Shown here one piece after another: positions 4,891 through 48,279 of a DNA stretch of 64,000 nt. Origin of the DNA: a virus. Its lineage: Duplodnaviria > Caudoviricetes. The notes below the pieces were generated by a model, which did not search any database, was not told where the DNA came from, and saw only the letters and a program-made list of their open reading frames with translations. Position 1 is the stretch's first letter; each line of letters begins with the position of its first letter. The translations under genes and the position numbers were made by a program. Location: IMG/VR virus record IMGVR_UViG_3300025121_000013. One strand, 5' to 3'.

Positions 4891-4892
4891 TT

Positions 4893-5747
4893 ATGTCAAT
4901 AGAAATTATGAAAGGAAGATATCTTTTTTCTATCGAAGAAATTTTAAATGATTTAAAAAAATGTATAGAAAATAAAATCCCTTTTTCTTTGATTAGATTT
5001 GGTGACGGTGGATTAAAATTTATTGAATCTGTTACAAGAGGAAATCATAATCAACTAAGTGAAATATCTTTAAAAGAAGGTTTTCCTATTGAACTGTCTG
5101 GTGATATTTTAGAATGGTGGGGATGGGCTGCAAGAACGGCAAATTATATTGATACCCCAGAAATATATTTTACGGAATATTTTTGGCCCAGGCTTAGAGG
5201 GCCAAAAAAGCCAATGCATAAACAAACCATTATGAAATTAAAATTGTGGTATGAAATATATAATGATGCTGAATTTGATAATAAAAATTATTGTAATCCA
5301 GAAATAAATTTTTTATCTGTTTTAAGAATTAGTAAAAATAAAATGAATTTAATCGATTTATTAAAAGGTAAACGAGTTTGTTGTATAGGAACAAATAAAA
5401 AAATAATTGACATTTTACAAGAATTAGAATGCGCCTCAGAATGTATAGAAATCCCATCACAATGGCAAAATCAGTATGAAAAGTCATTTAATACTGTGAT
5501 TAAAGAGATTTCAGAAAAAGCAAATTATTATGATATGTGGTTGGTTTCAGCTGGAGAATTAGGGAGAATATATTCTGGAGTGATAAAAGAATATGGCGGA
5601 AGATCTTTTGATTTAGGTTTTGTCTATGACTATTGGCTAAAGAAAGATATTCCTGTGAGATTAAAAGAGTTTATTGGCAAAAATCCGGATAATCAATATG
5701 AATTCATTTTAAAAAAAAAAGCAAAAAAATTCCAGAGGTATTTATAA
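4893..5747 (+). CDS. GT-D fold (DUF1792-like) glycosyltransferase
   Basis: PFSLIRFGDGG motif and C-terminal VSAG...SFDLG. Confidence 0.65.
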   Translation: MSIEIMKGRYLFSIEEILNDLKKCIENKIPFSLIRFGDGGLKFIESVTRGNHNQLSEISLKEGFPIELSGDILEWWGWAARTANYIDTPEIYFTEYFWPRLRGPKKPMHKQTIMKLKLWYEIYNDAEFDNKNYCNPEINFLSVLRISKNKMNLIDLLKGKRVCCIGTNKKIIDILQELECASECIEIPSQWQNQYEKSFNTVIKEISEKANYYDMWLVSAGELGRIYSGVIKEYGGRSFDLGFVYDYWLKKDIPVRLKEFIGKNPDNQYEFILKKKAKKFQRYL

Positions 5748-13972: not shown

Positions 13973-14470
13973 GTTAGGGCCTGGAGCGGTGATGTGTGCA
14001 ATGCCTTCTTGCACGGTTTGGTGTTCCCGCTCCAGGCCCAACCCTTTTCTTTTTGGGCGGTGGGGTAGACCGATGCAACTCACTCGGATTTGTACCCCAC
14101 CGCCCAGGACCCTTTAGACGTCTAAAGAGCCCTTGGTGAAGGAAAGTTTTATGCGGTCTTATGGCAGAGGCCCATGTAAGTGAGTTTGCCGGCCAGCAAG
14201 GTGGTTCCCCCAAGATCTGTTAACTTGGGGGAACCCTTTCCTTCATTCTTTTAATGGGGGAAGGTTTGGATGTGGACTTACAGACTTTCCCCGTGAGGGT
14301 ATTCGCTGTCGCCTTAACATGAAGTCATCAAGATACAAGCGCCTTGACGCACTTCCCTTCCCCCATTTGCTTCGGCCGTTGGGCTCTTGGCAAGTCCAGC
14401 GGCTAATCCCAGGCTGAGGCCGTAGCCCGGGAAAAACCACACAAATTCTACTTCGCCTAATTCCTTCCGT
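13973..14470 (-). ncRNA. candidate structured non-coding region (tandem long hairpins)
   Basis: At least four 12-14 bp perfect stems and a 16-bp palindrome in about 500 nt with no credible ORF; strand inferred from the upstream gene. Confidence 0.35.
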
Positions 14471-14510
14471 GCCCTGCCGGCCTCCAGAAGGTTTCGGACA
14501 TGATAGAATT

Positions 14511-15404
14511 CTACTTCACGGCTTCCTTGATCTTGTCCTTGGCGAAGTCCTGGATCTCGTCGACGTACTTCGTTCCGCTGTCGACCGATCCATCCGCTTT
14601 GAACTTGAGGGTTTTTTCCTGAGCCGGGAAGTCAACCCAGGACTTGAAGGAAGGGGGGCCGCCGAACAGGCCGGAGAGGAGGGTTTTTTCCTCTCCGTAG
14701 ACCATGGGGCCAAACTCCGTTGTCCCAAGGGGAACCACGATTTCATTCCTGTTCTCAACTACCCACCAGGGCTTGCTGATGCCCTGGCTGATCATCCTCT
14801 TGATCAGCCAGGACATGGTTGTCTCGGGACCCAGGACCATGCCGGCAGAGGTGATTGGCGCAATCACTGCTCCCTCCACCAGATCCCGGTATATCGTCCA
14901 CGGGAAGACGACGCTGTCCTGGCCATTCTCCTTGGCCTGGAAAACGAGGCCCTTGAGGATATGGGGATTCTTCATCCCCTCCTCGTTGGTGATCACCTGC
15001 ATCCCATCGACCGTCACGAACCTGAAACCGAGGAACTCCGGATTCTTCACCTCAGCCCGGAGTTCCTCAACAACGTCCTTGGCGAGCTGGTTTTCGCCGG
15101 AGATCGCCTTCAAGGCCAGATACATGTCCTTGGCCCCGGTGAGGCTGTTTCCCACGGAGCTCGCCACGTCCTTCATGCCTTGGGAGCTGAAGCCCCCGAA
15201 GGCCGCGAAGAGAACGATCATTCCCAGGATCATGACCAGGGTGATCTTCATCGTCCGAAGGACCTTTGTGGTTGTTTTCTTGGCCACATGTTTCAGGTAT
15301 TCCTTCGCCTTCTTGTTCTCCGTACCCTTCTCTTCTCCGACTTGGCATCCATCTTCCATTGTGTCCTCGCTTTCATGTAACATTGTTTTGGGTGAATTAC
15401 ACAA
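14511..15404 (-). CDS. GC-rich membrane-anchored hypothetical protein
   Basis: 297 aa ORF, hydrophobic segment ITLVMILGMIVLFAAFGGF, GGAG RBS. Confidence 0.65.
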   Translation of the reverse strand: MCNSPKTMLHESEDTMEDGCQVGEEKGTENKKAKEYLKHVAKKTTTKVLRTMKITLVMILGMIVLFAAFGGFSSQGMKDVASSVGNSLTGAKDMYLALKAISGENQLAKDVVEELRAEVKNPEFLGFRFVTVDGMQVITNEEGMKNPHILKGLVFQAKENGQDSVVFPWTIYRDLVEGAVIAPITSAGMVLGPETTMSWLIKRMISQGISKPWWVVENRNEIVVPLGTTEFGPMVYGEEKTLLSGLFGGPPSFKSWVDFPAQEKTLKFKADGSVDSGTKYVDEIQDFAKDKIKEAVK

Positions 15405-15443
15405 TGAACGCCATTCTTTATCTGGCGTTGGTAAATGAACTTC

Positions 15444-15869
15444 CTATTCGGAAAGAAGGCCTTTTTCTCGGGCCATTCTTAGAATTGCGAGTTGGTTGAT
15501 AAGTCCAGCATCTCTGAATATTTTAATATACTTAACCAAGTCTAAATATATTTCTTCATAAGGTTCAATTTCTTTTTTCATCTTTATACAGTCTTCAATC
15601 CTATGTTTTAATAAGTGCTCGAAAATTGTATATAATTTTTCCCATTTTCCCATAGTAAAAAGCTTGTTTATATTTTCGATTATTTCGGAAAAGAGATGAT
15701 TTGCAAATTCATTATGATTTTGTGCACAGAATATCATAAACAATTTATTAATTGAATCCATGGTTGCATTAGGAAATTTATTGACATCTAATAGCGCAAA
15801 TAATGCATTTCTTTGATCGACTCCCAATTGGTTTATGATATCATTCTGTTCCTTTGTCAGCTCTAACAT
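15444..15869 (-). CDS. hypothetical protein
   Basis: 141 aa ORF with AGGAG RBS. Confidence 0.6.
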   Translation of the reverse strand: MLELTKEQNDIINQLGVDQRNALFALLDVNKFPNATMDSINKLFMIFCAQNHNEFANHLFSEIIENINKLFTMGKWEKLYTIFEHLLKHRIEDCIKMKKEIEPYEEIYLDLVKYIKIFRDAGLINQLAILRMAREKGLLSE

Positions 15870-15880
15870 GTTCTTTCTCC

Positions 15881-16054
15881 TTAAACTATTGGAGTTTCAT
15901 TTTTATCATCATCCTTGGTTATCAATTGAAATATGAGTTCAAAGATTTTTATCAAAATCTCAAGGGAGATTTTTAAAATTAAACCTATTAACGTTACCAT
16001 TGAAGCAAATACGCTTTCAACCACAAAGGCGATTATTTTGAGACATAAATCCAT
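15881..16054 (-). CDS. small hydrophobic protein (57 aa, not in ORF track)
   Basis: Translated by hand: MDLCLKIIAFVVESVFASMVTLIGLILKISLEILIKIFELIFQLITKDDDKNETPIV; TAATG coupling to the upstream gene. Confidence 0.5.
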   Translation of the reverse strand: MDLCLKIIAFVVESVFASMVTLIGLILKISLEILIKIFELIFQLITKDDDKNETPIV

Positions 16055-23974: not shown

Positions 23975-24526
23975 ATGCCATTTAAGACTTTTTTTAATTG
24001 GCTTTTTGACGATTCAATCAATTCTGAAATTCCAAAACCTAAATTAAATGAAGAAGGTAAAGTTTTAATTCCTGATATTTTGAAATACAATTCTCCAATC
24101 ACTCATACCTATGTAATTTCTTTATTTTTAAATAGTCCTGAATTAAATCATTTTTTAAATAAAAAATTTAATAATATCAATTTAAGATATTTAGAAAAAA
24201 AGGAATTATTCTTATTCATTAAAAAGTGTGTAATTGATTTTAGAATTAAAAGAAATATGATGCTTTATAAACCTTATAAAAAACAAGAAGAATTATTTAA
24301 AGGTTTAAGAAGTAAAATTCCTTTATTAAAAAATGATGATATAGAATTATTATCAGACCTTTGTTTAAAATTACCAGATGAAGAAAAAGATGAAATATAT
24401 TCTGGATTGGGCTTATTGAAGGAAAAACCAGTTAAAACAAAAATCAAAAAAGAAACTAAAAAGAAGCAAAAAAATAAGATTAGTAAAGATGACTTCTTAA
24501 AAAATATAAGTGTGATTAAGAAATAG
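23975..24526 (+). CDS. hypothetical protein
   Basis: 183 aa ORF, AAGGA RBS, preceded by AGAACAAA motif. Confidence 0.65.
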   Translation: MPFKTFFNWLFDDSINSEIPKPKLNEEGKVLIPDILKYNSPITHTYVISLFLNSPELNHFLNKKFNNINLRYLEKKELFLFIKKCVIDFRIKRNMMLYKPYKKQEELFKGLRSKIPLLKNDDIELLSDLCLKLPDEEKDEIYSGLGLLKEKPVKTKIKKETKKKQKNKISKDDFLKNISVIKK

Positions 24527-24535
24527 AATTTTGGA

Positions 24536-25080
24536 TGGATGGGCCCCAAAGGCGGAATGACGGCGCCGGTTGGGGCCCATCCAGAATTACTAGGCAAAGG
24601 CCTGCGAGAGCAAAGGGGTTTCTCTCAGCTGCAGGCCTTTGCCTTTCTGCGGTGAAGCGATCTAAGTCTTCCAATCCACGAGAGCCCAGCGTCCCAGGTC
24701 TCTTGGTTTGGGATTGGATAGCCTTAGACCATCTTTCGCTTTTTCATGGCACGCCCTTTCAAAGTTGGGGTTGGTTTTCACTCCAGGTGCTCCGGACTTC
24801 TGGCGGTCAGTGAAAAGCTATCCGTGTTCTAAACAGGAAAAACCTCAACACGAGGTATTTCATCCTGTCTCCTTTCGATGATGGTTCATTCCAAGGTTTC
24901 CCAGAATTAAGTTTCCCTTGTCTAAATGAAACGTGGCTGGAGATCACAGGGCGTTGCCCAAGCGTAACGGATAAGAGGAAAGTCTAGATCTTCTTAACTA
25001 ACAGATCCGAAAATTCCTTAGTTCCGTTTCTAGTGACCCGCAGTTTTCCCTCATGCCCTTGAGGACCACAAATTAACGAT
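24536..25080 (-). ncRNA. candidate structured non-coding region downstream of rpsA
   Basis: Stacked stems 24536-24583 (13 bp), 24592-24644 (14 bp) and 24656-24740 (compound); no credible ORF. Confidence 0.3.
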
Positions 25081-25098
25081 TATCAATATCCCCCATCT

Positions 25099-26754
25099 CT
25101 ACTTCGTTTCGCTTCTCTTCATGACAAAACGGGGCTTGTTGAACCCCGGCTTTCCCTTGGAAGTCGGCCCTCCTCCCTCCATCTTGTTGATGGAGAAGGC
25201 CATCTTCCGTTCCTCCTTGTTGATGGAGACCACTTTGGCCTCCACGGAAGATCCGACCGGGAACGAGCCGGCGAGGTTCTTCGTCAGGTCCTTGGGGATC
25301 TCGGAAACGTGGACCAGGCCTCGCAGTCCGCCCTCAAGGGAGAGGAACACGCCGTAGTCGGCGGTCCCGGTCACCGTGCCGCAGATCTTCGTTCCGACGG
25401 GGAACCTTTCCCCGACGGTATCCCAGGGATCGGGCTCCAGTTGCTTGACGCCCAGGGCAATCCGCCCTGAAGAGGGATCGATCCGGATGATCTTGGCCCG
25501 GATCGTTTCCCCGATGTGATAAAGCTCAGCGGGCGTCTTGATGTGCCCGGTCCAGGAGATGTCCGAGATGTGGACCATGCCGTCGATTCCCTCATCGATG
25601 CCGAGGAAGATCCCGAAGTCGGTCATGGCCTTGATCTTGGACTCGATGGTGGTGCCCACCGGGTACTTCTCGCTGACGCTCTCGATGGGGTCCTTCTTGA
25701 TGGCCTTCATGGACAGGGCCAGCTTTCTCTGGGCCGGGTCGATCTCGAGGACGATGGCCTCGATCTCCTGGCCGATCTCCACGACGCTTGCAGGGTTCTT
25801 CACCCTCTGGTGGCTGATTTCCGTGGTGTAAATCAGGCCACGGATCATGGGGGCCACCTCGACGAATATCCCGTATTCGGTCGTCGAGGTCACCAGGGCC
25901 CGGATCTTCGTGCCCTTCTTGAACTTCTCGGCGGCCTCGATCCAGGGATCCGGAAGGAGCCGCTTGATGCTCAGCTCGATCTTCTCTTCCTCGGCGTTGA
26001 CGTTGACGACCTTCACCTCGATGTTCTGGCCCACGGTGTACTCCTGGGTCAGATCCGTGATCTTTCCCCAGGAGACCTCCGAGATGTGGACGAGGCCATC
26101 TACACCTCCGAGGTCAAGGAACAGGCCGAACTTGGTGATGGCCTTGATGTCCCCCTTGACGACGGAGTCTGGAATGATCCGGGCAAAGGCTTCGGCCATG
26201 TTGGCCTCCCTCTCCTTCTCCAGGATCGCCCTCCTGGACACGATGACATTCCTCGTGTCCTCGTTGAAGGTGATGATCTTGAAGTTCATCGCCTTTCCCA
26301 GCACCTCTTCGGCCGAAACGGGGTGAAGGTCCACCTGGGAGCCGGGAAGGAAGGCGGGAACGCCGATGTCCACGGAGAAGCCGCCCTTGACCTGGTTTTT
26401 TACCAGGCCGAGGATATCGAGACCTCCCACGTAGGTTTCCTTGAGGCTTTCCCAGGTCACTCCCATGTTCTTTCCTATGGAGATCTGGACGGGCCGTCCA
26501 TCCTTCTCGAGGCCATCGAGAATGACTTCGATGAAGTCACCCTCCTTGACGGCCAGGCTTCCATCCTTGGTCGGAAGATCTCCGACCGGGATCAAGCCCA
26601 TGGTCATGCATCCCACGTCGACCATGGCGTTGATCTCGTTGATCTGGGTGATCACGCCGTCGACGACCGTGCCGATTTTGAAGATCTTCGGCTCGAAAAT
26701 CGACATGACGTTGTCTTGGGTGTATTCTGAATCTCGAACAGACGTCTTTTCCAT
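25099..26754 (-). CDS. rpsA: 30S ribosomal protein S1
   Basis: Six S1/OB repeats (VKGGFSVDIGVPAFLPGSQVD, FGLFLDLGGVDGLVHISEVSW, FGIFLGIDEGIDGMVHISDISW); AGGAG RBS; GC-rich (about 57% in a sampled line). Confidence 0.95.
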   Translation of the reverse strand: MEKTSVRDSEYTQDNVMSIFEPKIFKIGTVVDGVITQINEINAMVDVGCMTMGLIPVGDLPTKDGSLAVKEGDFIEVILDGLEKDGRPVQISIGKNMGVTWESLKETYVGGLDILGLVKNQVKGGFSVDIGVPAFLPGSQVDLHPVSAEEVLGKAMNFKIITFNEDTRNVIVSRRAILEKEREANMAEAFARIIPDSVVKGDIKAITKFGLFLDLGGVDGLVHISEVSWGKITDLTQEYTVGQNIEVKVVNVNAEEEKIELSIKRLLPDPWIEAAEKFKKGTKIRALVTSTTEYGIFVEVAPMIRGLIYTTEISHQRVKNPASVVEIGQEIEAIVLEIDPAQRKLALSMKAIKKDPIESVSEKYPVGTTIESKIKAMTDFGIFLGIDEGIDGMVHISDISWTGHIKTPAELYHIGETIRAKIIRIDPSSGRIALGVKQLEPDPWDTVGERFPVGTKICGTVTGTADYGVFLSLEGGLRGLVHVSEIPKDLTKNLAGSFPVGSSVEAKVVSINKEERKMAFSINKMEGGGPTSKGKPGFNKPRFVMKRSETK

Positions 26755-26819
26755 GTAACATTCTCCTTGTTGTGAGGTGGTATGGTTTGATTCTGAGACG
26801 ATTTTCTGGAACTTGGGGA

Positions 26820-27392
26820 CTAGATCTCGAACCCGGAGGCCCGGATTTCCTTCTTGAGGGCCAGGGGGATCCTCACCTTGGACAACTCAATCCCGGAACC
26901 CAGACAGGTGGGACAATCCCTCGAGCTCTTGATCTTCCTCCCGAGGACCGGCTCGGTGCATTTTCCTGCCCCCTTGCACTTCGGGCAGGGCACATCATCT
27001 GCCCGGAAGCGATTCTTCCGGTGCACATACACGCCGGTGCCGTTGCACCGGGAACATGTTTCCACTTCGCCGGCCCGGCCGCCGCAGACGGCGCAGACGT
27101 CTGTCCGGATCCCCCGGCCTCCGCAGGATGGGCAGGTGATTTCCTCCTCCCCTATCTGGAAGATGAACTTCTGACCCGCCCCCTTGCAGGCGGGGCAGAT
27201 GGGGGATGAGGGTGCCACCGACCAGGATTCTCCTGCCTCGATGGCGGCCCGGATCTTTTCGTTCTTGGCCGCCATGATGGCCTTGAACTCCTCCATGGTC
27301 TTGGTTTTCGAAATCAGGGACTCCAGACCCCGAACCTCATTGATGTCCACGTACTGGATTTCAACCTCGGCTGCATCATCCATCGGTAACAT
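26820..27392 (-). CDS. DnaJ-type zinc-finger protein without a J-domain
   Basis: Six CxxCxGxG-type repeats; start chosen after the GAAGGG RBS. Confidence 0.75.
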   Translation of the reverse strand: MLPMDDAAEVEIQYVDINEVRGLESLISKTKTMEEFKAIMAAKNEKIRAAIEAGESWSVAPSSPICPACKGAGQKFIFQIGEEEITCPSCGGRGIRTDVCAVCGGRAGEVETCSRCNGTGVYVHRKNRFRADDVPCPKCKGAGKCTEPVLGRKIKSSRDCPTCLGSGIELSKVRIPLALKKEIRASGFEI

Positions 27393-27786
27393 CCCTTCGT
27401 GTGGGTTTCGGCGGAAGCTCCGCCATGATGACCTTGACCATTTCAAGGTCCTTTTCTTTTTTTATTGCCATGAGCATGAGAGCGGAGCCCACCAAAATTC
27501 CTCTCTCAGAACATATGACTCCTTGTTTCTGTATCGAATTTAAGATTTTGGAAACTTCATCGTCAAGTCTCCAAAATTCTTTTATCGGAGTTCCAGGGGT
27601 TTGACTCATGTCATTTAATTTCTGAGCAATGGTTGATATTCTTTTCCACCCATGTCGAATTCTTTTAATCATTTCAGAAGCCTCTGTTTCAAGATTTCTT
27701 TGAACATTTATTTCTTTCTTGCCCAATTTTTTGTATTCTTTTCCAGAACCTTTTCCGGCTTTTTTGGATTTCTTTTGCTCAGCCAT
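27376..27786 (-). CDS. hypothetical basic protein
   Basis: AGGAG RBS before ATG at 27786. Confidence 0.55.
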   Translation of the reverse strand: MAEQKKSKKAGKGSGKEYKKLGKKEINVQRNLETEASEMIKRIRHGWKRISTIAQKLNDMSQTPGTPIKEFWRLDDEVSKILNSIQKQGVICSERGILVGSALMLMAIKKEKDLEMVKVIMAELPPKPTRRDVTDG

Positions 27787-28026
27787 TCGTTTTCTCCTTG
27801 GACGTTGTAACATATTTTTAGTTTATTATATTCTGTAAAGTTAATATAATTTATCCCCATAAAGTGAGTATAAAAAATGTGTATTAAATATCTCAATTCA
27901 TTAATTAATATATATAGGTTCAAAAAGAAAACATAAAAGAATCTTGTCGTTCTTCAAGATTTTAAATAAAGAAAAAATATAAAAGTAAAAGAACAAATTA
28001 TTGTAAACTTTTAAAAGGAGGATTCT

Positions 28027-31000
28027 TTGGAATCAATAAAAAGTTCTTTGGGAAACTGTATGGAATGTTCTTTACAAAACGAACCTTCTTGTATTTTAGA
28101 AACAAATTGTGAAGATGATCTTTCAAAAGTCGATGTAATTTTCGTAGCAGAAAATCCAGGAAAAGAAGAAGTGGAATATATTCCTCCCACTCCACTTATA
28201 GGAAAGTCTGGACAAACTTTTAGAAAATATTTTAAGAAATTAAAACTTGATAAATTGAATTATTTAATTACAAATGTAGTTTGGTGTTTAACTTTAAATG
28301 AAGATGGAACAACAGGAAATCCTTCACAAAAGGTTATAGATTGTTGTAAAGAAAATTGCTTTGAGTTAATAAGAAATTGTAATCCAAAGTTGATTGTAAT
28401 TATGGGAAATTCTCCTTTGTCTGCATTCAATATTGCAAAGACTGGAGTCACAAAATGTAGAGGTAAAATTTACGATTGGGAAGATTATAAAATTTTCGTG
28501 ACAGTTCATCCATCTTATGTAAATAGAAATAGGATTGTTGAAGAGCCTGAATTTGAAAGAGATTTATCAAAGGTCGCAGAGTTCTTTGGAATAAAAAATG
28601 ATATTGAACAAGGAAAAGAAAGAAATATAAATATTACAAATATAAAAGGAAAATATCAATATTCTATACCTGAGAAATATTATACAGATAATTATCGGTT
28701 GGTCGATGTCCAATATTTAGGAAGAAAAAGAGAAGTCATTTATATTTTTAGAGATAAAGATAATAAAAAGGAGATTTATAAAACAGATGATAAATATTAT
28801 TGTTATACATGTTTAGATGATAATGAAAAGAAAAAAATTGTACCCTATGAAAAACTTAATCAAACGTTTTTACATTATTCTGATAAATCTTTATTAGATT
28901 TTAATTGTACGTATGAGGGTGATAATAGAATTACGTCGAAACATGCGTTAGATTATTATTTGAATTCAAAAGGCGAGGCTCCTAAACTTGATTTAAATAT
29001 TATGTATTTTGATATTGAGGTTGACACTGGAGAATCTCGTTCATTTCCAAAACCCACTGAAGCAAATTATCCAATCAATTTAATCACAAAGATTTATCAT
29101 AAGATTAAAACCACATATGTCATTGATAATAAAACAGAGGAAATTCAAAATATTGAAGGGGTTATTATAAAGAAGTTTAAAAACGAAAGAGATTTAATGT
29201 CATCTTTTATTTCTGATTTTAAGAATGATGACCCTGATATTCTGAGTGGTTGGAATTGTATCGATTTTGACCTCCAGTATATTTTTAATAGATTACCTAA
29301 AATAAATATTCGTCAAGAATCTATGTCTAAATTTGGTGAATTTTATGTTGATGGAAAAAGATTTGTTTGTAATCTTGCAGGGTGTGTTCCTTTGGACCAA
29401 TGCTTTTTATATAAGAATTTTACCTTCACAAAAAAGGAAAATTATAAATTAGGATTTATCGCCCAAGATGAATTAGGTTATACGAAAGTCGCAATGGATC
29501 TTCCGATCAATCAAATGTATTCAAAACTTTTAAATAAATTCATTGGTTATAACATTCGAGATACGGAACTTCTTGAAGGCCTTGAAAATAAACTAGAACA
29601 TATAAATCTCTTAAATGAAATTAGAACTATTTGTCATACGAGTTTTGATAATTGTTCGACATTTGGCCAGATTGATGCAATGTTAATTTCTTTTTTGAAG
29701 CAAAGAGGGTTTGGTTCAAAGAATAGTAATCAACATATGGAAAAAGTTAAATATGCAGGGGCTTTTGTTTTTGAGCCAATTCCTGGCATTTATGAAAAGG
29801 TTGTAGACTTTGACTTTAAATCACTATATCCAAGTTTGATCATTACATACAATATTGGAATAAATAATTTTAGAATTAAATTAGAGGATCCTTCTTTGGG
29901 GTTTGAATTATCGAAACACCCGGAGAATCTTCCTGATGAAATATCTGTAATTTTTGATCCAACTTTCAGAGCTGAGAAAAAAATTATAAAGAAGGAAGCA
30001 CTTCTTAACATCATTAAAAAAAATAATTATATTCATACAATTAATGGTTGTTTATTTGAAAATCATGATAAAGAGTTATCTGTTTTAGGAGAAGCTTTAA
30101 AAGAGATTTTAGATTCTCGTGATAGATATAAGAAGATGATGTTTAAAGCCGTAGAAGAAAAGAAAAATGACGAATCAAAATTTTATGATACAAGGCAACA
30201 AGTTTATAAGGTTTTGGCAAATGGAACATATGGAGTTTTAGGAAATAAAGCATTTAGATTTTATGATGAATCTTGTGCTGGTGCAATTACATTATCAGGT
30301 CAAGAAGCTTTAAAGAATTCAATTATTTATGGAAATAATTTTATGGAAAGTTTAAATTTAGAAAAGCCGATGGTAATTCCTGATGAGATAACTAAGAAAG
30401 AAATTTTCTCAGATGAAATGCCTGATATTAGAAAAAGGATCAAATATATTGTAACTGGAGATACCGATTCAATTTTTTGTTGTTTTGAAAAATTTAAAAA
30501 GGAAAAGAATGTTGAAAATATTAGAGGCTGGTGTAAAGAAATTGAAAATTATTTAAATAATGTTATTATGCCACATATTGTTAGAACACATAATGTCGAT
30601 CCAAAAAATAGTGTTTTAAAATTAAAAAATGAATTGATTATTTCTCGTGGATTATTTTTAGCAAAAAAGAGATACGCAATTCATGTTATAAATAATGAAG
30701 GAAAATCTGTTGATAAAATGAAATTTATGGGTGTTGAAATTAAAAGATCAGATTATCCGCAAAAGTCAAAAGAGTTTTTAACTGAGTTGGTAAATTTGAT
30801 TTTAAAATCAGAAAAAGTTTCTATTACAAAATTAATGAAATTTGTAGAGATGAAAGAAAAAGAATTTATTGAGGCAATAAATAATGGAGAAAAAACAATC
30901 GCAAGACCTGTTTCAATTGGAAAAGAGATAGAAGAATATAAGACTGTTCCTCAAGGAACAAAGGCTATGTTGAATTTTAATGATTTAATTTATGACGCTC

Positions 31001-31269
31001 ATGATGTTGGAAGTCGTGGATATATGTTTAAAATTAAAGGGATAAATTTAGATTTAGCTCCAGATGATGTAAAGAAAAATTATCAGAAGTTTTTATCTTC
31101 TGGAAAAAAATTGGAAGTTATTGCCATTCCTGATGAAGAACAACGATTACCAAAATATATTATTCCTGATATGAAAGAACAATTAAAATTTTCTTTTACT
31201 GATCGTTATGAACTTATGTTAAAACCTATTTTAGACATAAAAACTAAAAATACAGTTCTAACTTTTTAA
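28027..31269 (+). CDS. family B DNA polymerase with N-terminal family-4 uracil-DNA glycosylase-like domain
   Basis: UDG4: CMEC, AENPG, TNVVWC, HPSY. PolB: YFDIEVD, GWNCIDFD, YNIRD, DFKSLYPS, KVLANGTYG, TGDTDS. TTG start after AGGAGG. Confidence 0.92.
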   Translation: MESIKSSLGNCMECSLQNEPSCILETNCEDDLSKVDVIFVAENPGKEEVEYIPPTPLIGKSGQTFRKYFKKLKLDKLNYLITNVVWCLTLNEDGTTGNPSQKVIDCCKENCFELIRNCNPKLIVIMGNSPLSAFNIAKTGVTKCRGKIYDWEDYKIFVTVHPSYVNRNRIVEEPEFERDLSKVAEFFGIKNDIEQGKERNINITNIKGKYQYSIPEKYYTDNYRLVDVQYLGRKREVIYIFRDKDNKKEIYKTDDKYYCYTCLDDNEKKKIVPYEKLNQTFLHYSDKSLLDFNCTYEGDNRITSKHALDYYLNSKGEAPKLDLNIMYFDIEVDTGESRSFPKPTEANYPINLITKIYHKIKTTYVIDNKTEEIQNIEGVIIKKFKNERDLMSSFISDFKNDDPDILSGWNCIDFDLQYIFNRLPKINIRQESMSKFGEFYVDGKRFVCNLAGCVPLDQCFLYKNFTFTKKENYKLGFIAQDELGYTKVAMDLPINQMYSKLLNKFIGYNIRDTELLEGLENKLEHINLLNEIRTICHTSFDNCSTFGQIDAMLISFLKQRGFGSKNSNQHMEKVKYAGAFVFEPIPGIYEKVVDFDFKSLYPSLIITYNIGINNFRIKLEDPSLGFELSKHPENLPDEISVIFDPTFRAEKKIIKKEALLNIIKKNNYIHTINGCLFENHDKELSVLGEALKEILDSRDRYKKMMFKAVEEKKNDESKFYDTRQQVYKVLANGTYGVLGNKAFRFYDESCAGAITLSGQEALKNSIIYGNNFMESLNLEKPMVIPDEITKKEIFSDEMPDIRKRIKYIVTGDTDSIFCCFEKFKKEKNVENIRGWCKEIENYLNNVIMPHIVRTHNVDPKNSVLKLKNELIISRGLFLAKKRYAIHVINNEGKSVDKMKFMGVEIKRSDYPQKSKEFLTELVNLILKSEKVSITKLMKFVEMKEKEFIEAINNGEKTIARPVSIGKEIEEYKTVPQGTKAMLNFNDLIYDAHDVGSRGYMFKIKGINLDLAPDDVKKNYQKFLSSGKKLEVIAIPDEEQRLPKYIIPDMKEQLKFSFTDRYELMLKPILDIKTKNTVLTF

Positions 31270-31327: not shown

Positions 31328-32038
31328 GTGATAATGGACAATATAAAAGTAATTGAGTCTTTTATAACATGGCAGGGAGAGGGGCCTGACATTGGAAAGA
31401 GAATGCTCCTTTTAAGATTTAAAACCTGTGATAGAGTCGAAAATAAAAATCCTTGTTCATGGTGTGATACAATAATTAAAATGAGATGCTCCATTGAGCA
31501 GGAGGTTTCTCTCCAAACGATCCAAGAAACTTTAGATAAAAACAAAGCTGGTTTGATGATAACCGGAGGGGAACCTACATTTGGAGAAAACTTAAAAAAT
31601 ACAACCAGACTTTTAAATTTATATTATAACGTTGCTAACATTGAAACAAATGGTTTTGATCTTTTAGGCCTTTTTAAAATTATCTCCAATATTGATAAAA
31701 ATATAAAAATAATTTGGTCTCCAAAAATTTTCAGCAATAAAGATTATGTCGATTTTCAAGTCAAAGTCTCAGAATTAAATTCATATAAAAATGATGTTTA
31801 TTTAAAATTTGTAATAGACAATAAAAATTTTCCAGAAGATAATTTAAGGGTAGAAAAATGTTTACAATTTATCTTAGATAATCCAAAAATTAAATTTGAT
31901 ATAGATAAAGTTTATTTAATGCCAGAAGGAAAAACAAGGGAAGACTTAATTAAAAATTCAGAGATTTGTTTTGACATGTGTGAGAAGTGGAATTGTAGTT
32001 TTTCTTCAAGGGATCAAATAATCTATGGTTTCGTTTAA
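31328..32038 (+). CDS. queE: 7-carboxy-7-deazaguanine synthase QueE (radical SAM)
   Basis: ESFITWQGEG, C-x8-C-x2-C, ITGGEP, IETNG, WSPK, YLMPEG. Confidence 0.85.
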   Translation: MIMDNIKVIESFITWQGEGPDIGKRMLLLRFKTCDRVENKNPCSWCDTIIKMRCSIEQEVSLQTIQETLDKNKAGLMITGGEPTFGENLKNTTRLLNLYYNVANIETNGFDLLGLFKIISNIDKNIKIIWSPKIFSNKDYVDFQVKVSELNSYKNDVYLKFVIDNKNFPEDNLRVEKCLQFILDNPKIKFDIDKVYLMPEGKTREDLIKNSEICFDMCEKWNCSFSSRDQIIYGFV

Positions 32039-33229: not shown

Positions 33230-34018
33230 ATGAATTTAACTTTTATTAATGCCACAACAATTTCAGATTTGTGGTTTCAAGCAATTTATTCAATTATTGA
33301 TAATGGAAAAAGATTTAAGATTGATGAAGGCTCATACGCTGGACAAATGAGATTGGAGTTTGATTATTTTATCGGCCAAATTAAATGTCCATGGGGTGAA
33401 CCAATTCTTCCTGTAATTCCTCCGGGTTTAGACATCCCTCCACCTGTGGAAAATGATTATATTTTTGGTGGAAAAAATTATGATAGATCATATATTGAAT
33501 ATTTAATGACACCGACAAAAATGGCAAATGAATCATATACTTATGGTGAAAGATTAACACAATACAATGTATCAGAATTTATAAAAGAAAAGAGAGATGA
33601 AAAAAAGCATGAAATCGTCAATGTTGAAAAATATGATGATAAGATTTTATTGGCTGATAATTCAAATTTGTTCATCAATCAGATAGAATATGTTATAAAT
33701 AAATATAAGACCTCAGGACATAGAAATAATCAATTGATTTTACAGGTTGGAAATCCTGATGATCTTTTGTTAGTTGATCCACCATGTCTAAGACATATTG
33801 ATACAAGAATTCAAGATAACAAACTTCATTTTTTTGTGTATTTTAGATCATGGGATTTATGGGGTGGGTTGCCAGCAAATTTAGCGGGGATACAATATTT
33901 AAAAAATTACATGTCAAATGAAATTGGGGTAGAAGATGGGGAAATGGTTGTAGAGTCAAAGGGTTTGCACATATATGGTTATGCTGAAGATCTTGTAAAA
34001 TTGAGGTGCGGAAAATAA
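33230..34018 (+). CDS. thyA: thymidylate synthase (archaeal-like ThyA subfamily)
   Basis: YTYGERL, DPPCL (catalytic Cys), FRSWDLWGGLPAN, LHIY. Confidence 0.85.
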   Translation: MNLTFINATTISDLWFQAIYSIIDNGKRFKIDEGSYAGQMRLEFDYFIGQIKCPWGEPILPVIPPGLDIPPPVENDYIFGGKNYDRSYIEYLMTPTKMANESYTYGERLTQYNVSEFIKEKRDEKKHEIVNVEKYDDKILLADNSNLFINQIEYVINKYKTSGHRNNQLILQVGNPDDLLLVDPPCLRHIDTRIQDNKLHFFVYFRSWDLWGGLPANLAGIQYLKNYMSNEIGVEDGEMVVESKGLHIYGYAEDLVKLRCGK

Positions 34019-35562: not shown

Positions 35563-36951
35563 ATGTCAATGAGTCAAAAGAAAAGTGGATTCATTTTAGC
35601 TGGAGGGGAAACTTTAAATTCCATTTGTGATAGATATTTAAAAAGTGAAGGCGAGGATTATATTACAAGAGAAGGAATTAATTCTATGTTAAATAAATCT
35701 ATCTCTGGAGTTTTACATTCTTTCGGTGAGGCTTTTGAAAAGAGAAGAAATATAAACACTCATATTAAATCTCATAGAAAAATTTTTCAGTCTATGATAG
35801 ATACAAAAATTTTAGATGGAATTAATATATTTTGTGACTCTGGAGGATTTCAAGCTTCCATAGGAAGGCTCGAAAAAGAATCCACTGATGATTTAATTCA
35901 GGCATATCATAAATTTTTAAGAGAAGAACATAATCTTATTGATAGGGCTTTTGTATTAGATTTGCCCCCAGGCCCAGGGTGCAAAATATTTCATTCTTTT
36001 GAAGAGATATATGAAAAGAATTTAGAAACATATAAAATGGCTTCTGAATTCCCTGATGAAATTAGATCTAAAATGATTTATATTCATCATTTTAGAACAC
36101 CAAAATTATGGAATATATTTAATAGAATTCTTTTTGAAAATGATTTGTTTGAAAAGTTTTCACATTTTGCAACAGGGGGAATTGTCGCAAATACAAAAGG
36201 AGATAGTAATATACCTTGCATAATTTATGTTTTGCCTTTAATTCCCCTTTTAATACAATGTAAAAAAAGAAATATTAAAAAATTAGATTTTCATATTTTA
36301 GGAGGCGCTACATTTAGGGATTTATTTTTTTATGAGATATTAGAAAAACATATAAAAGAAGTTCATGATATTCAAGTGAATTTTACGTTTGATTCTTCCA
36401 GTCTATTTAAAGGGTTGATGATAGGAAGATTTATTGTAATAATTGAAGAAGATGGAACTTTTAGAAAATTAGATTTGAGAAGTTCTTTATTAGATTTGAG
36501 ATTTAAGGGAAAAGAAACTCATAGAACAACATATTTAAAACATTTAAATAAGATGGCTCAGAAATATAATTTTAAACCATTAAATTTAACTGAGCCATAT
36601 TCTAAAGAAACAGGAACTTTTTTTCCAATATTTTCAGTTTATACAATGTTATTTATGCTTGATCAGTTTTCTGAATGTCAAACGATGTTTTCAAAATCCG
36701 CTACAAATTTTTATGAATTATATAAAATGGATAAGATTGAAGAGTTAAATTTTGAAACCAATGAAATTACAAAAAAAATAAACAAAGGAAATATTACAAG
36801 AAAACAAACTGCAAAAAACTTTGGGCTTATAAATTCATTAAAAATAATTACCGAACTAAATTATGATTATTGTGAATATATTGTTAACAAATGTTTATCG
36901 AAAGATGAGTTCATCAATTTATCCGATAGAAAGAAAATTCTAACGTTTTAA
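35563..36951 (+). CDS. TGT-fold base-exchange transglycosylase (DpdA/TGT-like)
   Basis: CDSGGFQ, VLDLPP, FHILGG, FDSSS (three TGT aspartates present); no CxCxxC Zn motif. Confidence 0.7.
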   Translation: MSMSQKKSGFILAGGETLNSICDRYLKSEGEDYITREGINSMLNKSISGVLHSFGEAFEKRRNINTHIKSHRKIFQSMIDTKILDGINIFCDSGGFQASIGRLEKESTDDLIQAYHKFLREEHNLIDRAFVLDLPPGPGCKIFHSFEEIYEKNLETYKMASEFPDEIRSKMIYIHHFRTPKLWNIFNRILFENDLFEKFSHFATGGIVANTKGDSNIPCIIYVLPLIPLLIQCKKRNIKKLDFHILGGATFRDLFFYEILEKHIKEVHDIQVNFTFDSSSLFKGLMIGRFIVIIEEDGTFRKLDLRSSLLDLRFKGKETHRTTYLKHLNKMAQKYNFKPLNLTEPYSKETGTFFPIFSVYTMLFMLDQFSECQTMFSKSATNFYELYKMDKIEELNFETNEITKKINKGNITRKQTAKNFGLINSLKIITELNYDYCEYIVNKCLSKDEFINLSDRKKILTF

Positions 36952-45672: not shown

Positions 45673-46064
45673 ATATCGAAGCAACTGAAATGCCAGATAT
45701 TTTATCTGAGAATATAGATAAAATAAAAGTGAAATTGGCTGATTCATTAATAGATAAAATTAAGCCTTTGGTTAATTTAGGGTATGAAAAAAGAAATAAT
45801 ATAATTAAAGAATTGGAATTAAAGATTTTACAAAATAAGCAAATAATGGAATCTTTAAAAAATAACCTTGTTAGTATCGATAAAGAAAAAAAGAAAAAAA
45901 ATAAAACGATTGAATTATTAGAAAATACCCTTAGATTAGTCTCAAAAGAAAATTTATCAAAATTAGCTTCAAGAAATGAATTGGTCACTTTGATAAATAT
46001 TTCTGATAAAGTGAGTATAGATAGATTGGAAGAACATATTCGATTTATCAAAAATATGTTATAA
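45669..46064 (+). CDS. coiled-coil hypothetical protein
   Basis: GTG start overlapping the previous stop. Confidence 0.5.
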   Translation: MNIEATEMPDILSENIDKIKVKLADSLIDKIKPLVNLGYEKRNNIIKELELKILQNKQIMESLKNNLVSIDKEKKKKNKTIELLENTLRLVSKENLSKLASRNELVTLINISDKVSIDRLEEHIRFIKNML

Positions 46065-46090
46065 GATCTGATCTGAATAAATATTTTTAA

Positions 46091-46114
46091 TTTAAGATCT
46101 GATCTTAAGATTTT
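46091..46114. promoter_or_regulatory. palindromic site TTAAGATC-T-GATCTTAA, copy 2 (partial third copy at about 46062)
   Basis: Upstream of AGAACAAA (46141) and the capsid gene. Confidence 0.6.
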
Positions 46115-46208
46115 TTAAGTTCTGTTATATGTAATATTAAAGAACAAAAAAATAACTAAAGTTTATAACTATTTATTGATTTAGATAGCAACCTAAAGGA
46201 GGAAATGT

Positions 46209-47666
46209 GTGATGAAGGAACTTTTACTTGAGGTTTATAAGACGACAAAGAGGCTTACTTCGGTTGACCCCAGTAAGCCAGGAAATTTAAAACCTTTCCT
46301 GGTGGATGACAATGCTTTCAAGACTTATATGGAAGGACTTTGCGAGTCTTTTCAGAACAAGAAGGACCGTGAGGCTTTTATGGTCCTGGCGGAAAATACT
46401 CGAGTTCGTTTACTTGAAAACTCTATGTTCCAAATGAACCCCTATGAATCTTTAATTTTTCCTGTTTTAAGAGTTTTCTATCCAAAGCTTGTTGCCAAGG
46501 AAGCCGTGACTGTGACTCCTATGGACAAGCCTGAAACCGTGCAAGCTATTTTGACAGCGACTTTCACCCAAGCGAATGGCAACACTCAGTATACCGCCCC
46601 CGTGACTTCTCAGGACATTTCCGGTGGGCCTTCTGTGGGAACTCCAGTGGCGGCTTCAATGCCTGTTCCTAGCACAGATTATGATGTTTTGGCTCAGATC
46701 AGCTTAACCAGTACTCAGGCTCATCTTGAGAGAGATTTTGAAATTACTGGCGTTTCTGCCGATGGTACAAATTTTACCTCAGTCTCGATTCAACCCGCTG
46801 TGGAAGGACATTTTGCTTCTTCAGTGACCATCGTTGGAACTGGAACCGATGTCATTACGGGTAAGGTTGATTATCTCAATGGCACGGTTTCTGTGGCTAG
46901 CACAAGCGCAGTCGTGACTTTTATTCGTTACACGGTTACATGTTCCCTCGAAGAGAATAGAATTAACCCGACTGTGACTCTTTCTGTGGATAAGCTCAGA
47001 CTGTACTCAAAGGATCGTCAGATCACTGCGAACTGGAGCGTGAACTTTGAGCAAGATATGCGTTCACTGTTTGACATGAATACCCAAGCTGAAATGGTTA
47101 ATATTATTGGTCAGCAGGTCGCGCTTGATATTGACAGAGAAATCGTCAATGCTTTAATCGCGGCTAACACGAATTTAAATGCTGCCACCCATAGACGGAC
47201 TTTTAATAGAACTCCCCCTGGAACTTACGTGTGGGGCGTTAAGTATTGGCACGAAAATATTATTTCCGATCTGAATATTCTTTCTTCGAGAATTTTTACC
47301 GATACAAATATTGACCAAGGCAATACCATTTTAGCGAATCCCGTTGACGTTGCCATTTTAGAAGATATCAATACTTTCAATTATACCGGTACTTCGAGCG
47401 TTGATGGGGAAGTTGGTTATCGGTCAGCTACCGTGGCCGGTGGAAAATGGAAGATTCTCACTTCCAATGTGGTTCCCGCTGGAAGCATGATTGTGATTTA
47501 CAAACCAGTTGAAGACATGAAAGCCATTTATATTTATGCGCCTTATATTCCGGCTGTGTTGCATCCTTACCCACTGGGTGCTAAGCCCTCCTTGACGATT
47601 TTAAGTCGGTACGCTAATGCCATGGTGAGAAGCAATGGCGTTGCGGTTCTGACAATCGGTGCGTAA
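46209..47666 (+). CDS. major capsid protein (T4 gp23-like, HK97 fold)
   Basis: LVAKEAVTVTPM, ITANWSVNFEQDM, IDREIVNAL, YAPYIP...SRYA; AGGAGG RBS; strong terminator follows. Confidence 0.85.
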   Translation: MMKELLLEVYKTTKRLTSVDPSKPGNLKPFLVDDNAFKTYMEGLCESFQNKKDREAFMVLAENTRVRLLENSMFQMNPYESLIFPVLRVFYPKLVAKEAVTVTPMDKPETVQAILTATFTQANGNTQYTAPVTSQDISGGPSVGTPVAASMPVPSTDYDVLAQISLTSTQAHLERDFEITGVSADGTNFTSVSIQPAVEGHFASSVTIVGTGTDVITGKVDYLNGTVSVASTSAVVTFIRYTVTCSLEENRINPTVTLSVDKLRLYSKDRQITANWSVNFEQDMRSLFDMNTQAEMVNIIGQQVALDIDREIVNALIAANTNLNAATHRRTFNRTPPGTYVWGVKYWHENIISDLNILSSRIFTDTNIDQGNTILANPVDVAILEDINTFNYTGTSSVDGEVGYRSATVAGGKWKILTSNVVPAGSMIVIYKPVEDMKAIYIYAPYIPAVLHPYPLGAKPSLTILSRYANAMVRSNGVAVLTIGA

Positions 47667-47687
47667 TTTACCTTAAAAATTAGCAAA

Positions 47688-47727
47688 AAAATGTCCCGGG
47701 GATGAAGCAAATTCCCCGGGACATTTT
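47688..47727. terminator. 15-bp inverted repeat after the capsid gene
   Basis: AAAATGTCCCGGGGA / TCCCCGGGACATTTT. Confidence 0.8.
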
Positions 47728-47757
47728 CCTCTCGTCGGTTTGAGCCTTCCTTAAACT

Positions 47758-48279
47758 TTATCCTTTAAGATTTTTTATCTCGGCATGAAATTCCTGGATC
47801 GTTTTTTGGAGTCGAGTAATTACCAACCCTTTTTGATAAACTTCTTCCTCGAGTTCTTCAACCCTTTTCTGAAGGGCAAGACATCGTTTTTCAGATGGGG
47901 TAAGACTTCTGTTTCTTGGAATCAATGAGACAATTTCTCCATCGATCCTAATTAATCCCAAATCAATCAAATTTTTAAATAAAGGCAGCCTTACTTTTTC
48001 AACGTTTAATGATCTTCGAGCTTTTCTTAATTCTGAAATAGTGCATGAACCTTTGCACCGTTTTAGAGTTCTTAGAACTGTTGATCCAACTTCCTTACTA
48101 AAATCTCTTGTCAATTTAAATCCATTTTCAACCTTCTCCACACCAGGCTTACGATTTAGACGAATATTTACAAAGGTTTGCGGCAGATCCCATTCGTCCG
48201 CAAACTCTTTATAAGAAATCACCTCCCCAATTTTTTTCATTCCCAAAGCGAGGTTAATCAGCTGAGCTTCTTTTTGCAT
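47758..48279 (-). CDS. hypothetical protein with C-terminal coiled coil
   Basis: GGGGAG RBS; 173 aa. Confidence 0.6.
   Translation of the reverse strand: MQKEAQLINLALGMKKIGEVISYKEFADEWDLPQTFVNIRLNRKPGVEKVENGFKLTRDFSKEVGSTVLRTLKRCKGSCTISELRKARRSLNVEKVRLPLFKNLIDLGLIRIDGEIVSLIPRNRSLTPSEKRCLALQKRVEELEEEVYQKGLVITRLQKTIQEFHAEIKNLKG

Follow-up and report, generated by a model that had tools for sequence, protein, structure and literature searches.

The gene at positions 28027 to 31269 raises the question of whether a phage replicative polymerase of family B (PolB) truly carries a uracil-DNA glycosylase (UDG) within the same polypeptide and, if so, what the glycosylase would be doing there. The gene lies on the forward strand, as do all the features given below, in a 64,000-nucleotide stretch of DNA (the window; IMG/VR record IMGVR_UViG_3300025121_000013) from a giant AT-rich groundwater phage (72% A+T). 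It is a single uninterrupted ORF of 1080 amino acids plus a stop codon, starting at a TTG codon with a strong ribosome-binding site ahead of it: an AGGAGG Shine-Dalgarno sequence, read directly, lies at 28016 to 28021, 5 nt upstream. Three Pfam families matched this one ORF above their curated cut-offs, namely, UDG PF03167 (amino acids 34 to 176; E = 4e-18; 66 bits against a cut-off of 24.3), the PolB exonuclease PF03104 (amino acids 317 to 475) and PolB PF00136 (amino acids 549 to 958; E = 8e-43). One frame thus joins a UDG4-like N-terminus to an intact exonuclease and PolB, as the initial annotation had proposed.

From Pfam, PDB sequence matches, a domain model and conservation, we placed the family-4 UDG domain at amino acids 8 to 190 (28048 to 28596). 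It is followed by a hypervariable linker of low model confidence (amino acids ~191 to 200; 28597 to 28626), a gp43-type N-terminal domain recognized by a custom HMM and by the full-model alignment (amino acids ~201 to 300; 28627 to 28926), a 3'-5' proofreading exonuclease with Exo I, II and III (amino acids ~301 to 540; 28927 to 29646; PF03104), and the polymerase palm, fingers and thumb (amino acids ~541 to 1080; 29647 to 31266), delimited from PF00136, phrog_262 and Foldseek.

That this arrangement is an artefact, whether of chimeric assembly, of a missed stop codon or frameshift or of two genes merged in reading, is extremely improbable. Contigs from two independent low-coverage runs do break near the linker, at 28591 to 28627, but these breaks fall in a hypervariable segment, where strain variation is expected: mean pairwise identity is 13 to 23% in the linker versus 40 to 66% in the neighboring domains, and pLDDT falls below 50 at amino acids 193 to 198 of the structure model. 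A 37-kb contig, which may come from the source sample itself, crosses the junction without differences, and no joints or loose ends appear in the contigs that several groundwater runs contribute to this stretch. In a metagenome protein collection, the fusion protein is present with 100% identity on 11 public contigs, the longest of 273,779 bp, and the same single-ORF architecture recurs in all 120 of the 120 best-scoring matches, in dozens of clusters at 50% identity and in IMG/VR genomes of up to 312 kb. Since contig coverage reveals no assembly join between the domains and the architecture recurs in relatives, we regard the junction as genuine.

By both motifs and fold, the polymerase is a family B enzyme of the T4/RB69 gp43 type. 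It matched phrog_262 (E = 2e-131), RB69 and T4 gp43 were its top Foldseek matches (TM by target, 0.71 to 0.78), and the full-protein model aligned to RB69 gp43 across about 980 columns. Invariant among homologues are the exonuclease motifs DIE (amino acids 329 to 331), NxxxFD (410 to 415) and YxxxD (508 to 512), with the residues D329/E331, N410/D415 and Y508/D512, and the polymerase motifs DFDFxSLYPS (594 to 602), KxxxNxxYG (728 to 736) and DTDS (812 to 815); the C-terminal tail ending in LTF is conserved. T4 and RB69 gp43 share this core fold and these motifs but have no UDG domain, and the custom HMM of amino acids ~201 to 300 matched related PolBs that include some without a UDG.

The UDG domain is predicted to adopt a UDG-superfamily fold nearest to family-4 structures. 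Its model (pLDDT 94, pTM 0.90) found 1UI1, 1UI0, 1L9G and 4ZBY as top Foldseek matches (TM, 0.74 to 0.82), and its sequence matched 1L9G and 1UI0 in the PDB (E of about 5e-14). The AENPG (motif A, amino acids 41 to 45), HPSY (motif B, amino acids 161 to 164) and Fe-S cysteines claimed in the initial annotation were all found. In alignments, Cys11, Cys14, Cys87 and Cys107 fall at the Fe-S ligand positions of the Thermus thermophilus (1UI0) and Thermotoga maritima (1L9G) family-4 enzymes, so that the predicted [4Fe-4S] ligand set of a family-4 UDG appears to be present; the fourth conserved ligand is Cys107, the adjacent Cys106 not being at the ligand position. The uracil-reading Asn, part of the ITN motif in 1UI0, has its aligned counterpart in Asn83, and Leu57 (in PLIG) stands where family 4 has a uracil-stacking Phe (in PFVG). 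Counted over 72 homologue clusters at 50% identity or less, Cys11 is kept in 66, Cys14 in 67, Cys87 in all 72 and Cys107 in 71, the motif A Glu in 64 (the commonest readings of the motif being AEAPG or GEAPG), Asn83 in 68 and His161 in 67; the stacking position is Leu in 56 clusters and Phe in 14. The NCBIfam family-4 models TIGR00758 and NF040953 gave 67 bits, under their curated cut-offs of 125.3 and 250, and we therefore treat the domain as a divergent branch of family 4 rather than as an equivalog.

In the polymerase tree, every UDG-bearing sequence fell into one clade with a local support of 100%, and the classical T4-like PolBs (820 to 870 amino acids) lay outside it. The clade also contains split, intein-bearing, N-extended and decayed forms; the N-terminal extension of 150 to 210 amino acids in one subgroup had no match in Pfam, and an alignment of the N-extended forms contained no segment conserved well enough to serve as an IMG/VR query. 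About 60 to 70 of the best 150 cluster representatives (50% identity) carry the fusion. It is absent from 50,697 GenBank phage records, and a full-text literature search found no description of a phage UDG-PolB fusion, which bears out the earlier impression that such a fusion is unfamiliar; the architecture is thus missing from annotated isolates, yet common in metagenomic phages.

Identity among close homologues is 65% in the UDG domain versus 63 to 66% in the exonuclease and polymerase, and among distant homologues it is 46% versus 39 to 42%. Distances in the UDG domain and the polymerase core co-vary (Mantel r = 0.60; 0 of 999 permutations), which, together with the single fully supported clade, fits one old fusion maintained by selection. 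Of the 18 related IMG/VR genomes that encode the fusion, 17 have no UDG besides the fused domain, and the remaining one (G013) has one additional free copy. In two contigs of related phages, a free-standing copy, 50 to 54% identical, lies next to a gene for a 5'-3' exonuclease, suggesting that the module can exist as an enzyme of its own. Several lineages have a decayed or lost UDG domain, implying that it is dispensable in some backgrounds. Scans of IMG/VR with the single distant proteins P0156 and P0179 gave no match, and no close relatives of the decayed-UDG group were found there. Relatives also bear metagenome-assembled genome labels (Thermoplasmatales, Woesearchaeota, Heimdallarchaeota, Mycoplasmatota and Thorarchaeota); as these conflict across phyla, we read them as mis-binned AT-rich phage contigs and rejected them as evidence of host.

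We think it reasonably probable that the UDG domain works as a glycosylase while attached to the replication machinery. An ancestor of this T4-like jumbo phage lineage would have gained a cellular-type family-4 (Fe-S) UDG at the N-terminus of its polymerase, and the short flexible linker would hold the domain on the replicative enzyme. The domain would then travel with the replisome, flipping out and cleaving uracil from the DNA that the polymerase handles, the uracil arising from dUMP misincorporation or from cytosine deamination in a genome that is 72% A+T. Because the lineage has no conserved repair set, the abasic sites would fall to the proofreading exonuclease of the polymerase itself or to base-excision repair by the host. 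The architecture, the predicted fold, the conserved ligand and catalytic residues, the strength of selection and the distribution are observations, and we infer the enzymatic activity, the strand on which the domain would look for uracil and what becomes of the abasic sites. The initial annotation had offered two functions, and of these, uracil scanning during replication is the better supported, since the residues for uracil reading and for catalysis have been retained, while the sensing of a modified base found no support. The nearest solved relatives of the domain, by sequence and by predicted fold, are active cellular family-4 UDGs, and the UDG domain of SP15-like PolA is a working enzyme that removes dU in front of the fork (PMC13697223).

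Several observations count against an active glycosylase. The stacking Phe is replaced by Leu, the NCBIfam scores lie below their cut-offs, and the domain has decayed or been lost in several lineages. Removing uracil from the template in front of the fork would also be hazardous for a polymerase of the RB69 type, which stalls at abasic sites. Downstream repair genes, moreover, are not conserved: among five related IMG/VR records, a dUTPase, an AP_endonuc_2 (PF01261) match and a ligase were each found in one, and ExoIII and PolX in none, although these absences are weak evidence because the records are only 38 to 100% complete.

The domain might instead be mainly structural, gripping or guiding DNA or serving as a processivity module, in which case catalysis would be a side role or not needed at all. 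A processivity role has been proposed for the UDG domains on the PolA of SPO1, T5 and N4 (PMC3201878, PMC10201439), and the vaccinia virus UDG, D4, makes the E9 polymerase processive together with A20 (PMC4889955); the decayed remnants of some lineages, which retain the cysteines but have lost motifs A and B, look as if the scaffold alone were useful. We nevertheless hold a mainly structural role to be rather unlikely, since the catalytic and uracil-reading residues are retained in about 90% of clusters, unlike those of N4-type domains, and since the linker is flexible and hypervariable. Clamp-loader-like genes adjoin polB in related loci, with weak matches in three of the five relatives, and these genes, along with the conserved C-terminal tail of the polymerase, make a separate clamp likely; PF09116, for a gp45-type clamp, had no match in the relatives, probably through divergence.

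The surrounding genes bring up a different possibility, that the domain serves DNA modification by recognizing a modified base (7-deazaguanine or a 5-substituted uracil) or by purging plain uracil to leave modified bases alone in the DNA. QueC, QueE, Qng1 and DpdA-like genes surround the fusion gene, including a QueE-like radical SAM gene directly downstream (31328 to 32038; phrog_2076, E = 3e-29) and a DpdA-like DNA transglycosylase gene (35563 to 36951; weak phrog_887 match). Between these two lies a divergent thymidylate-synthase-like gene (33230 to 34018), matched by PF00303 in its C-terminal half only (E = 1.7e-11), which in PDB alignments retains the cysteine of the PPC motif and the Asn that specifies dUMP, is without the usual C-terminal segment and gave only weak synthase matches in a BLAST search against phages; it may encode either a synthase or a hydroxymethylase. 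It stays near polB in close relatives, at 5 to 6 kb in G001, G003 and G004, and likewise in L177 and L180. A DpdA-like homologue is present in all 18 IMG/VR records with the fusion versus none of 19 T4-like genomes without a UDG remnant, bar one weak match, and a genome with a decayed UDG (G015) has no DpdA-like gene across 245 kb. Active UDG-PolA enzymes are found in modified-thymine phages (PMC13697223), and the Leu in place of the stacking Phe counts on this side as well.

The co-occurrence of UDG and DpdA-like genes tracks one clade, however, and is thus not independent evidence. A 211-kb contig encodes a PolB of the clade without a UDG and still has a DpdA-like gene 2.2 kb downstream, and another locus, whose UDG has decayed, still has QueC and GTP cyclohydrolase I. 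In a within-clade comparison of UDG loss with DpdA loss, comprising only three or four cases, some lineages uncouple the two traits, and the proposed connection with 7-deazaguanine modification therefore seems to reflect common descent. Contigs with UDG-less or decayed clade polymerases (L159 to L163; 5 to 37 kb, of which 4.8 to 13 kb was covered) had no DpdA-like gene nearby but are too short to count. DpdA itself exchanges bases and needs no glycosylase, and the uracil-reading Asn is kept in a pyrimidine pocket to which a deazapurine is ill suited. A role in DNA modification is, in our judgment, very unlikely. We are also doubtful, if slightly less so, that the Leu-for-Phe pocket has been retuned for replication-coupled control of genome chemistry, either as a read-ahead or second proofreading device or for selection against unmodified pyrimidines in a genome with chemically replaced bases; the read-ahead form may, by analogy, be a convergent counterpart of the uracil pocket of archaeal PolBs and of the UDG-polymerase complex of poxviruses.

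The glycosylase tethered to the replisome that we favor has partial counterparts elsewhere. UDG-PolA fusions were already known, as the initial annotation had stated (PMC3201878, PMC10201439, PMC13697223), and those of the SPO1, N4 and T5 types share with UDG-PolB the order UDG, proofreading exonuclease, polymerase (PMC10201439, PMC3201878). UDG-PolB is an analogue of the UDG-PolA enzymes (SPO1, N4 and SP15-like) and not a member of their family, because its polymerase belongs to family B rather than family A. The N4-type UDG-like domain has lost its catalytic residues (PMC10201439), and the aligned SPO1-like sequence has no cysteines, Ser for Asn and Met for Phe, whereas UDG-PolB keeps the catalytic residues, the cysteines and the Asn. 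The SP15-like PolAs of YerA41, phiLo and SP-15 (PDB 9qhs) likewise have an N-terminal family-4 UDG on a phage replicative polymerase (PMC13697223); our domain matched 9qhs by sequence (E = 3e-8) and by Foldseek, and the phiLo UDG also keeps the cysteines, GEAPG, the Asn and HPS. The SP15-like polymerase, however, is a family A enzyme with large inserts rather than a T4-type PolB, and its phages have PolX, a ligase and modified T, whereas relatives with UDG-PolB have no conserved repair set.

The cellular family-4 enzymes (UDGa; 1UI0, 1L9G and Sulfolobus tokodaii 4ZBY) agree with the UDG-PolB domain in fold, Fe-S cysteines, Glu, Asn and His, but are free-standing proteins of about 190 to 205 amino acids, whereas the phage domain is fused and has AENPG as motif A and Leu for Phe. 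That it is nearer to these cellular enzymes than to the PolA-fused ones points to independent capture. In vaccinia virus (D4-A20-E9) and mpox virus (E4), a UDG is likewise attached, in trans, to a replicative polymerase of family B (PMC4889955, PMC13697223), but the pox- and herpesvirus UDGs are family 1 enzymes on a separate polypeptide in viruses of eukaryotes, and UDG-PolB is a covalent family-4 fusion in a phage. From annotation alone, an archaeal virus record also has a polymerase-linked family-4 UDG beside a thymidylate synthase gene, its partner being related to family C polymerases, unlike that of UDG-PolB.

Uracil removal coupled to replication is known from family A phage fusions, from non-covalent PolB complexes of pox- and herpesviruses and from the uracil pocket of archaeal PolBs. 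A UDG joined covalently to a T4-type PolB, with its catalytic residues intact, is the combination that was missing among these forms, and as a proofreading PolB with built-in removal of carry-over uracil, it is a candidate tool enzyme. UDG-PolB also offers a simple model for studying how an abasic-site-sensitive, high-fidelity replicase coexists in one polypeptide with a probable abasic-site-making enzyme, in a fusion long maintained in evolution across widespread uncultured jumbo phages.

The UDG-PolB fusion is encoded by an uninterrupted plus-strand ORF of 1080 aa (28027-31269), the TTG start codon of which follows an AGGAGG sequence at a spacing of 5 nt. The first internal Met comes after one of the two N-terminal cysteines and before the other, which leaves TTG as the only sensible choice. 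Pfam placed a UDG domain at aa 34-176 (E 4e-18), a PolB exonuclease domain at aa 317-475 and a PolB domain at aa 549-958, all above the curated cut-offs. The motifs named in the initial annotation were all present in the ORF, and its description was correct with one refinement: the four Fe-S ligand positions are occupied, but alignment of homologues showed that the conserved fourth ligand is Cys107 and not Cys106. The window is very AT-rich (about 25-33% G+C) apart from three GC-rich islands of 41-50% G+C (14001-16000, 24001-28000 and 46001-48000), the middle one carrying minus-strand rpsA and DnaJ-zinc-finger genes directly upstream of polB. Among the other genes of the window are those for an intein-containing portal of the T4 type, a major head protein, a prohead protease and a DnaB-like helicase.

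The possibility that the two parts had been brought together by an assembly join found no support, as no joints or loose ends appear in the covering contigs, which come from groundwater runs belonging to three studies. In two independent groundwater runs of low coverage, contigs stop and resume precisely at the linker between the UDG and polymerase parts (28591-28627). No part of the fusion protein varies more than this linker (13-23% identity), and strain microdiversity is therefore the likely cause of these breaks.

By sequence, the closest solved proteins to the UDG domain are the family-4 UDGs of Thermotoga maritima (1L9G and 1VK2) and Thermus thermophilus (1UI0), with E values of about 5e-14, followed by Sulfolobus tokodaii 4ZBX, the phiLo PolA-UDG (9qhs, E 3e-8) and UdgX. 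Cys11, Cys14, Cys87 and the Cys106/107 pair align onto the Fe-S cysteine positions of solved family-4 enzymes, AENPG corresponds to GEGPG, Asn83 to the ITN motif and HPSY to HPAY/HPSY, whereas the uracil-stacking residue lies in PFVG in the solved family-4 enzymes and in PLIG in the phage domain. A model of aa 1-200 built with 41 homologues was confident (pLDDT 94, pTM 0.90), and its best structural matches were the same family-4 enzymes (TM 0.74-0.82). The NCBIfam family-4 models matched the domain over their full length but with scores far under the curated cut-offs. The domain thus belongs to family 4 as a divergent branch. The remainder of the protein is a T4-type polymerase: aa 234-994 matched PHROGs family phrog_262 (E 2e-131), all exonuclease and polymerase motif residues were invariant across 26 homologues, and the full-length model, confident save at aa 193-198 (pLDDT 91.8, pTM 0.76), gives an alignment of about 980 columns with RB69 and T4 gp43.

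The impression that a PolB fusion is unfamiliar was borne out, in that none of 50,697 GenBank phage records covers at least 80% of the protein. The best matches there are cyanophage and other T4-like polymerases, restricted to aa ~217-1071 at 24-29% identity. The UDG part alone matches 32 of these records, comprising PolA fusions, free-standing UDGs, unannotated metagenomic records and one archaeal-virus DnaE-type protein, with no PolB among the annotated matches. The DnaE-type protein, from Methanobacterium virus PhiF1 (MK994522.1 ORF58; 3938-5281 of its locus), is annotated with an N-terminal UDG, so that UDG fusions may touch a third polymerase family. The full-text literature searched yielded PolA fusions and UDGs acting in trans but no UDG-PolB fusion, and in public databases the sequences carry automatically assigned names, for example "uracil-DNA glycosylase family 4" or "family B DNA polymerase." A replicase-fused UDG is an already known kind of protein; what is new here is the family B partner.

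In a metagenomic collection of 5.8 billion proteins, the best 120 matches all carried PF03167, PF03104 and PF00136, at 54-59% identity and lengths of about 1053-1106 aa (one intein-bearing exception has 1529 aa), on contigs of up to 274 kb. When the representatives of 50%-identity clusters were searched exhaustively, 13,179 matched, and we scanned the best 150 with HMMs of the protein's four regions. A substantial UDG domain was found in 72 of these 150, the query itself counted, and at least 56 of the 72 carried it on one polypeptide with an intact exonuclease and an intact polymerase. Full-length, intein-bearing, split, N-extended and decayed-UDG forms all occur among them. The split form consists of a protein of about 830-860 aa, with the UDG, exonuclease and half of the polymerase, and of a second piece of ~300 aa; in some lineages the split into two genes falls after about aa 830 (proteins P0156-P0162 with P0170, P0218 and others). 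Inteins interrupt the exonuclease domain in other lineages (P0125, P0139, P0164 and P0173). The additional 150-210 aa preceding the UDG in the N-extended subgroup (P0150, P0160, P0179, P0194, P0207, P0236 and others) had no Pfam match.

In a FastTree phylogeny of the polymerase core (101 rows), all UDG-bearing sequences fell within one clade with 100% local support, and classical T4-like polymerases of 820-870 aa fell outside it. The UDG-less rows within the clade include many gene fragments and some true losses. Distances for the UDG and the core co-vary (Mantel r 0.60, 0/999 permutations), with the same mean identity of 34%, and the simplest reading is that the fusion arose once, long ago, and has occasionally been lost. 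One UDG-less clade polymerase (P0154, 388-3129 of contig L163) matches the recorded protein only when TAG is read as Gln, which suggests that its phage uses a recoded stop codon. Four contigs with clade polymerases (L177, L178, L179 and L180, one of them 211 kb) sit in GTDB-genome MAGs labeled Thermoplasmatales, Mycoplasmatota, Woesearchaeota and Heimdallarchaeota, with NCBI names that also include Thorarchaeota; these labels look like mis-binning of AT-rich phage DNA.

Across the 72 clusters with a substantial UDG domain, the ligands Cys11, Cys14, Cys87 and Cys107 were kept in 66, 67, 72 and 71 clusters, respectively, the motif A Glu in 64, Asn83 in 68 and His161 in 67; position 57 was Leu in 56 and Phe in 14. 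The UDG was 65% identical among close homologues, compared with 63-66% for the exonuclease and polymerase, and 46% compared with 39-42% among distant ones. Judged from these alignments, such conservation is the pattern that would be expected from a working active site. In this the PolB-fused domain differs from the UDG domains of N4-type PolA proteins, which have lost the catalytic residues (PMC10201439), and from an aligned SPO1-like sequence, which has neither the cysteines nor the Asn.

The fused domain is the sole UDG match in 17 of 18 fusion-bearing IMG/VR genomes, the other (G013) having one additional free copy. The module also exists as an independent gene, as shown by free-standing UDGs 50-54% identical to the fused domain in two related phage contigs (L188, 6001-6657, 218 aa; L189, 6001-6522, 173 aa), where they directly follow a 5'-3' exonuclease gene (PF02739), precede an unannotated ORF of ~379 aa and adjoin no polymerase. 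SP15-like phages carry PolX and a ligase (PMC13697223), whereas downstream repair genes are not conserved in five relatives: a dUTPase, an AP_endonuc_2 (PF01261) match and an ATP-dependent ligase were each found in one of the five, and ExoIII and PolX in none, absences that are weak evidence because the records are incomplete. Clamp-loader-like genes adjoin polB in related loci, with weak matches in three of the five relatives, so that the lineage probably has its own clamp, even though the gp45 clamp model found no match in the relatives.

We favor, as the fairly probable reading, an active family-4 glycosylase tethered by a flexible linker to the replicase and removing uracil during copying. 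The uracil could plausibly come from dUMP misincorporation and cytosine deamination, in a genome of 72% A+T. RB69-type polymerases stall at abasic sites, so here the domain would be at least as likely to act on duplex DNA, or on the newly made strand followed by exonuclease clean-up, as on the template. The template is the substrate in SP15-like PolA, where the UDG domain works ahead of the fork and the polymerase gets past the abasic site by inserting dA (PMC13697223). The main rival, a chiefly structural DNA-binding role by analogy with vaccinia D4, would be compatible with the conserved catalytic residues, but we consider it unlikely.

The initial annotation had also suggested sensing of a modified base, and the fusion gene indeed neighbors genes for QueC, QueE, Qng1 and a DpdA-like transglycosylase. 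All 18 fusion-bearing IMG/VR records have a DpdA-like homologue, which with one exception lies no more than about 10 kb from polB; barring one weak match, none was found in 19 T4-like records without any UDG remnant. This co-occurrence is not independent evidence, however, because DpdA-like presence tracks one clade. The informative cases disagree: G015, a related genome of 245 kb, retains only a decayed UDG and has no DpdA-like gene; one decayed-UDG locus retains QueC and GTP cyclohydrolase I; and on a 211-kb contig a clade polymerase that lacks any UDG is followed 2.2 kb downstream by a DpdA-like gene, the sole UDG in the same MAG being encoded on a different contig by a 206-aa gene that looks unrelated. 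The fusion and the DpdA-like gene can thus occur apart, and with the uracil-reading Asn retained in the pocket, service in a modified-base program seems very improbable.

Downstream of the fusion lies a divergent thymidylate-synthase-like gene (33230-34018, plus strand, 262 aa), which close relatives also have at 5-6 kb from polB. Only the C-terminal half of its product matches thymidylate synthase, retaining the PPC catalytic Cys and the dUMP-specifying Asn. Its alignment to the Escherichia coli enzyme extends only to about position 219, so that the protein, stopping about 45 residues short of the canonical C terminus, is missing the usual C-terminal segment. Instead of a synthase, it could be an enzyme of the pyrimidine hydroxymethylase type and, if so, these phages would closely parallel the T-modified phages that carry UDG-PolA fusions.
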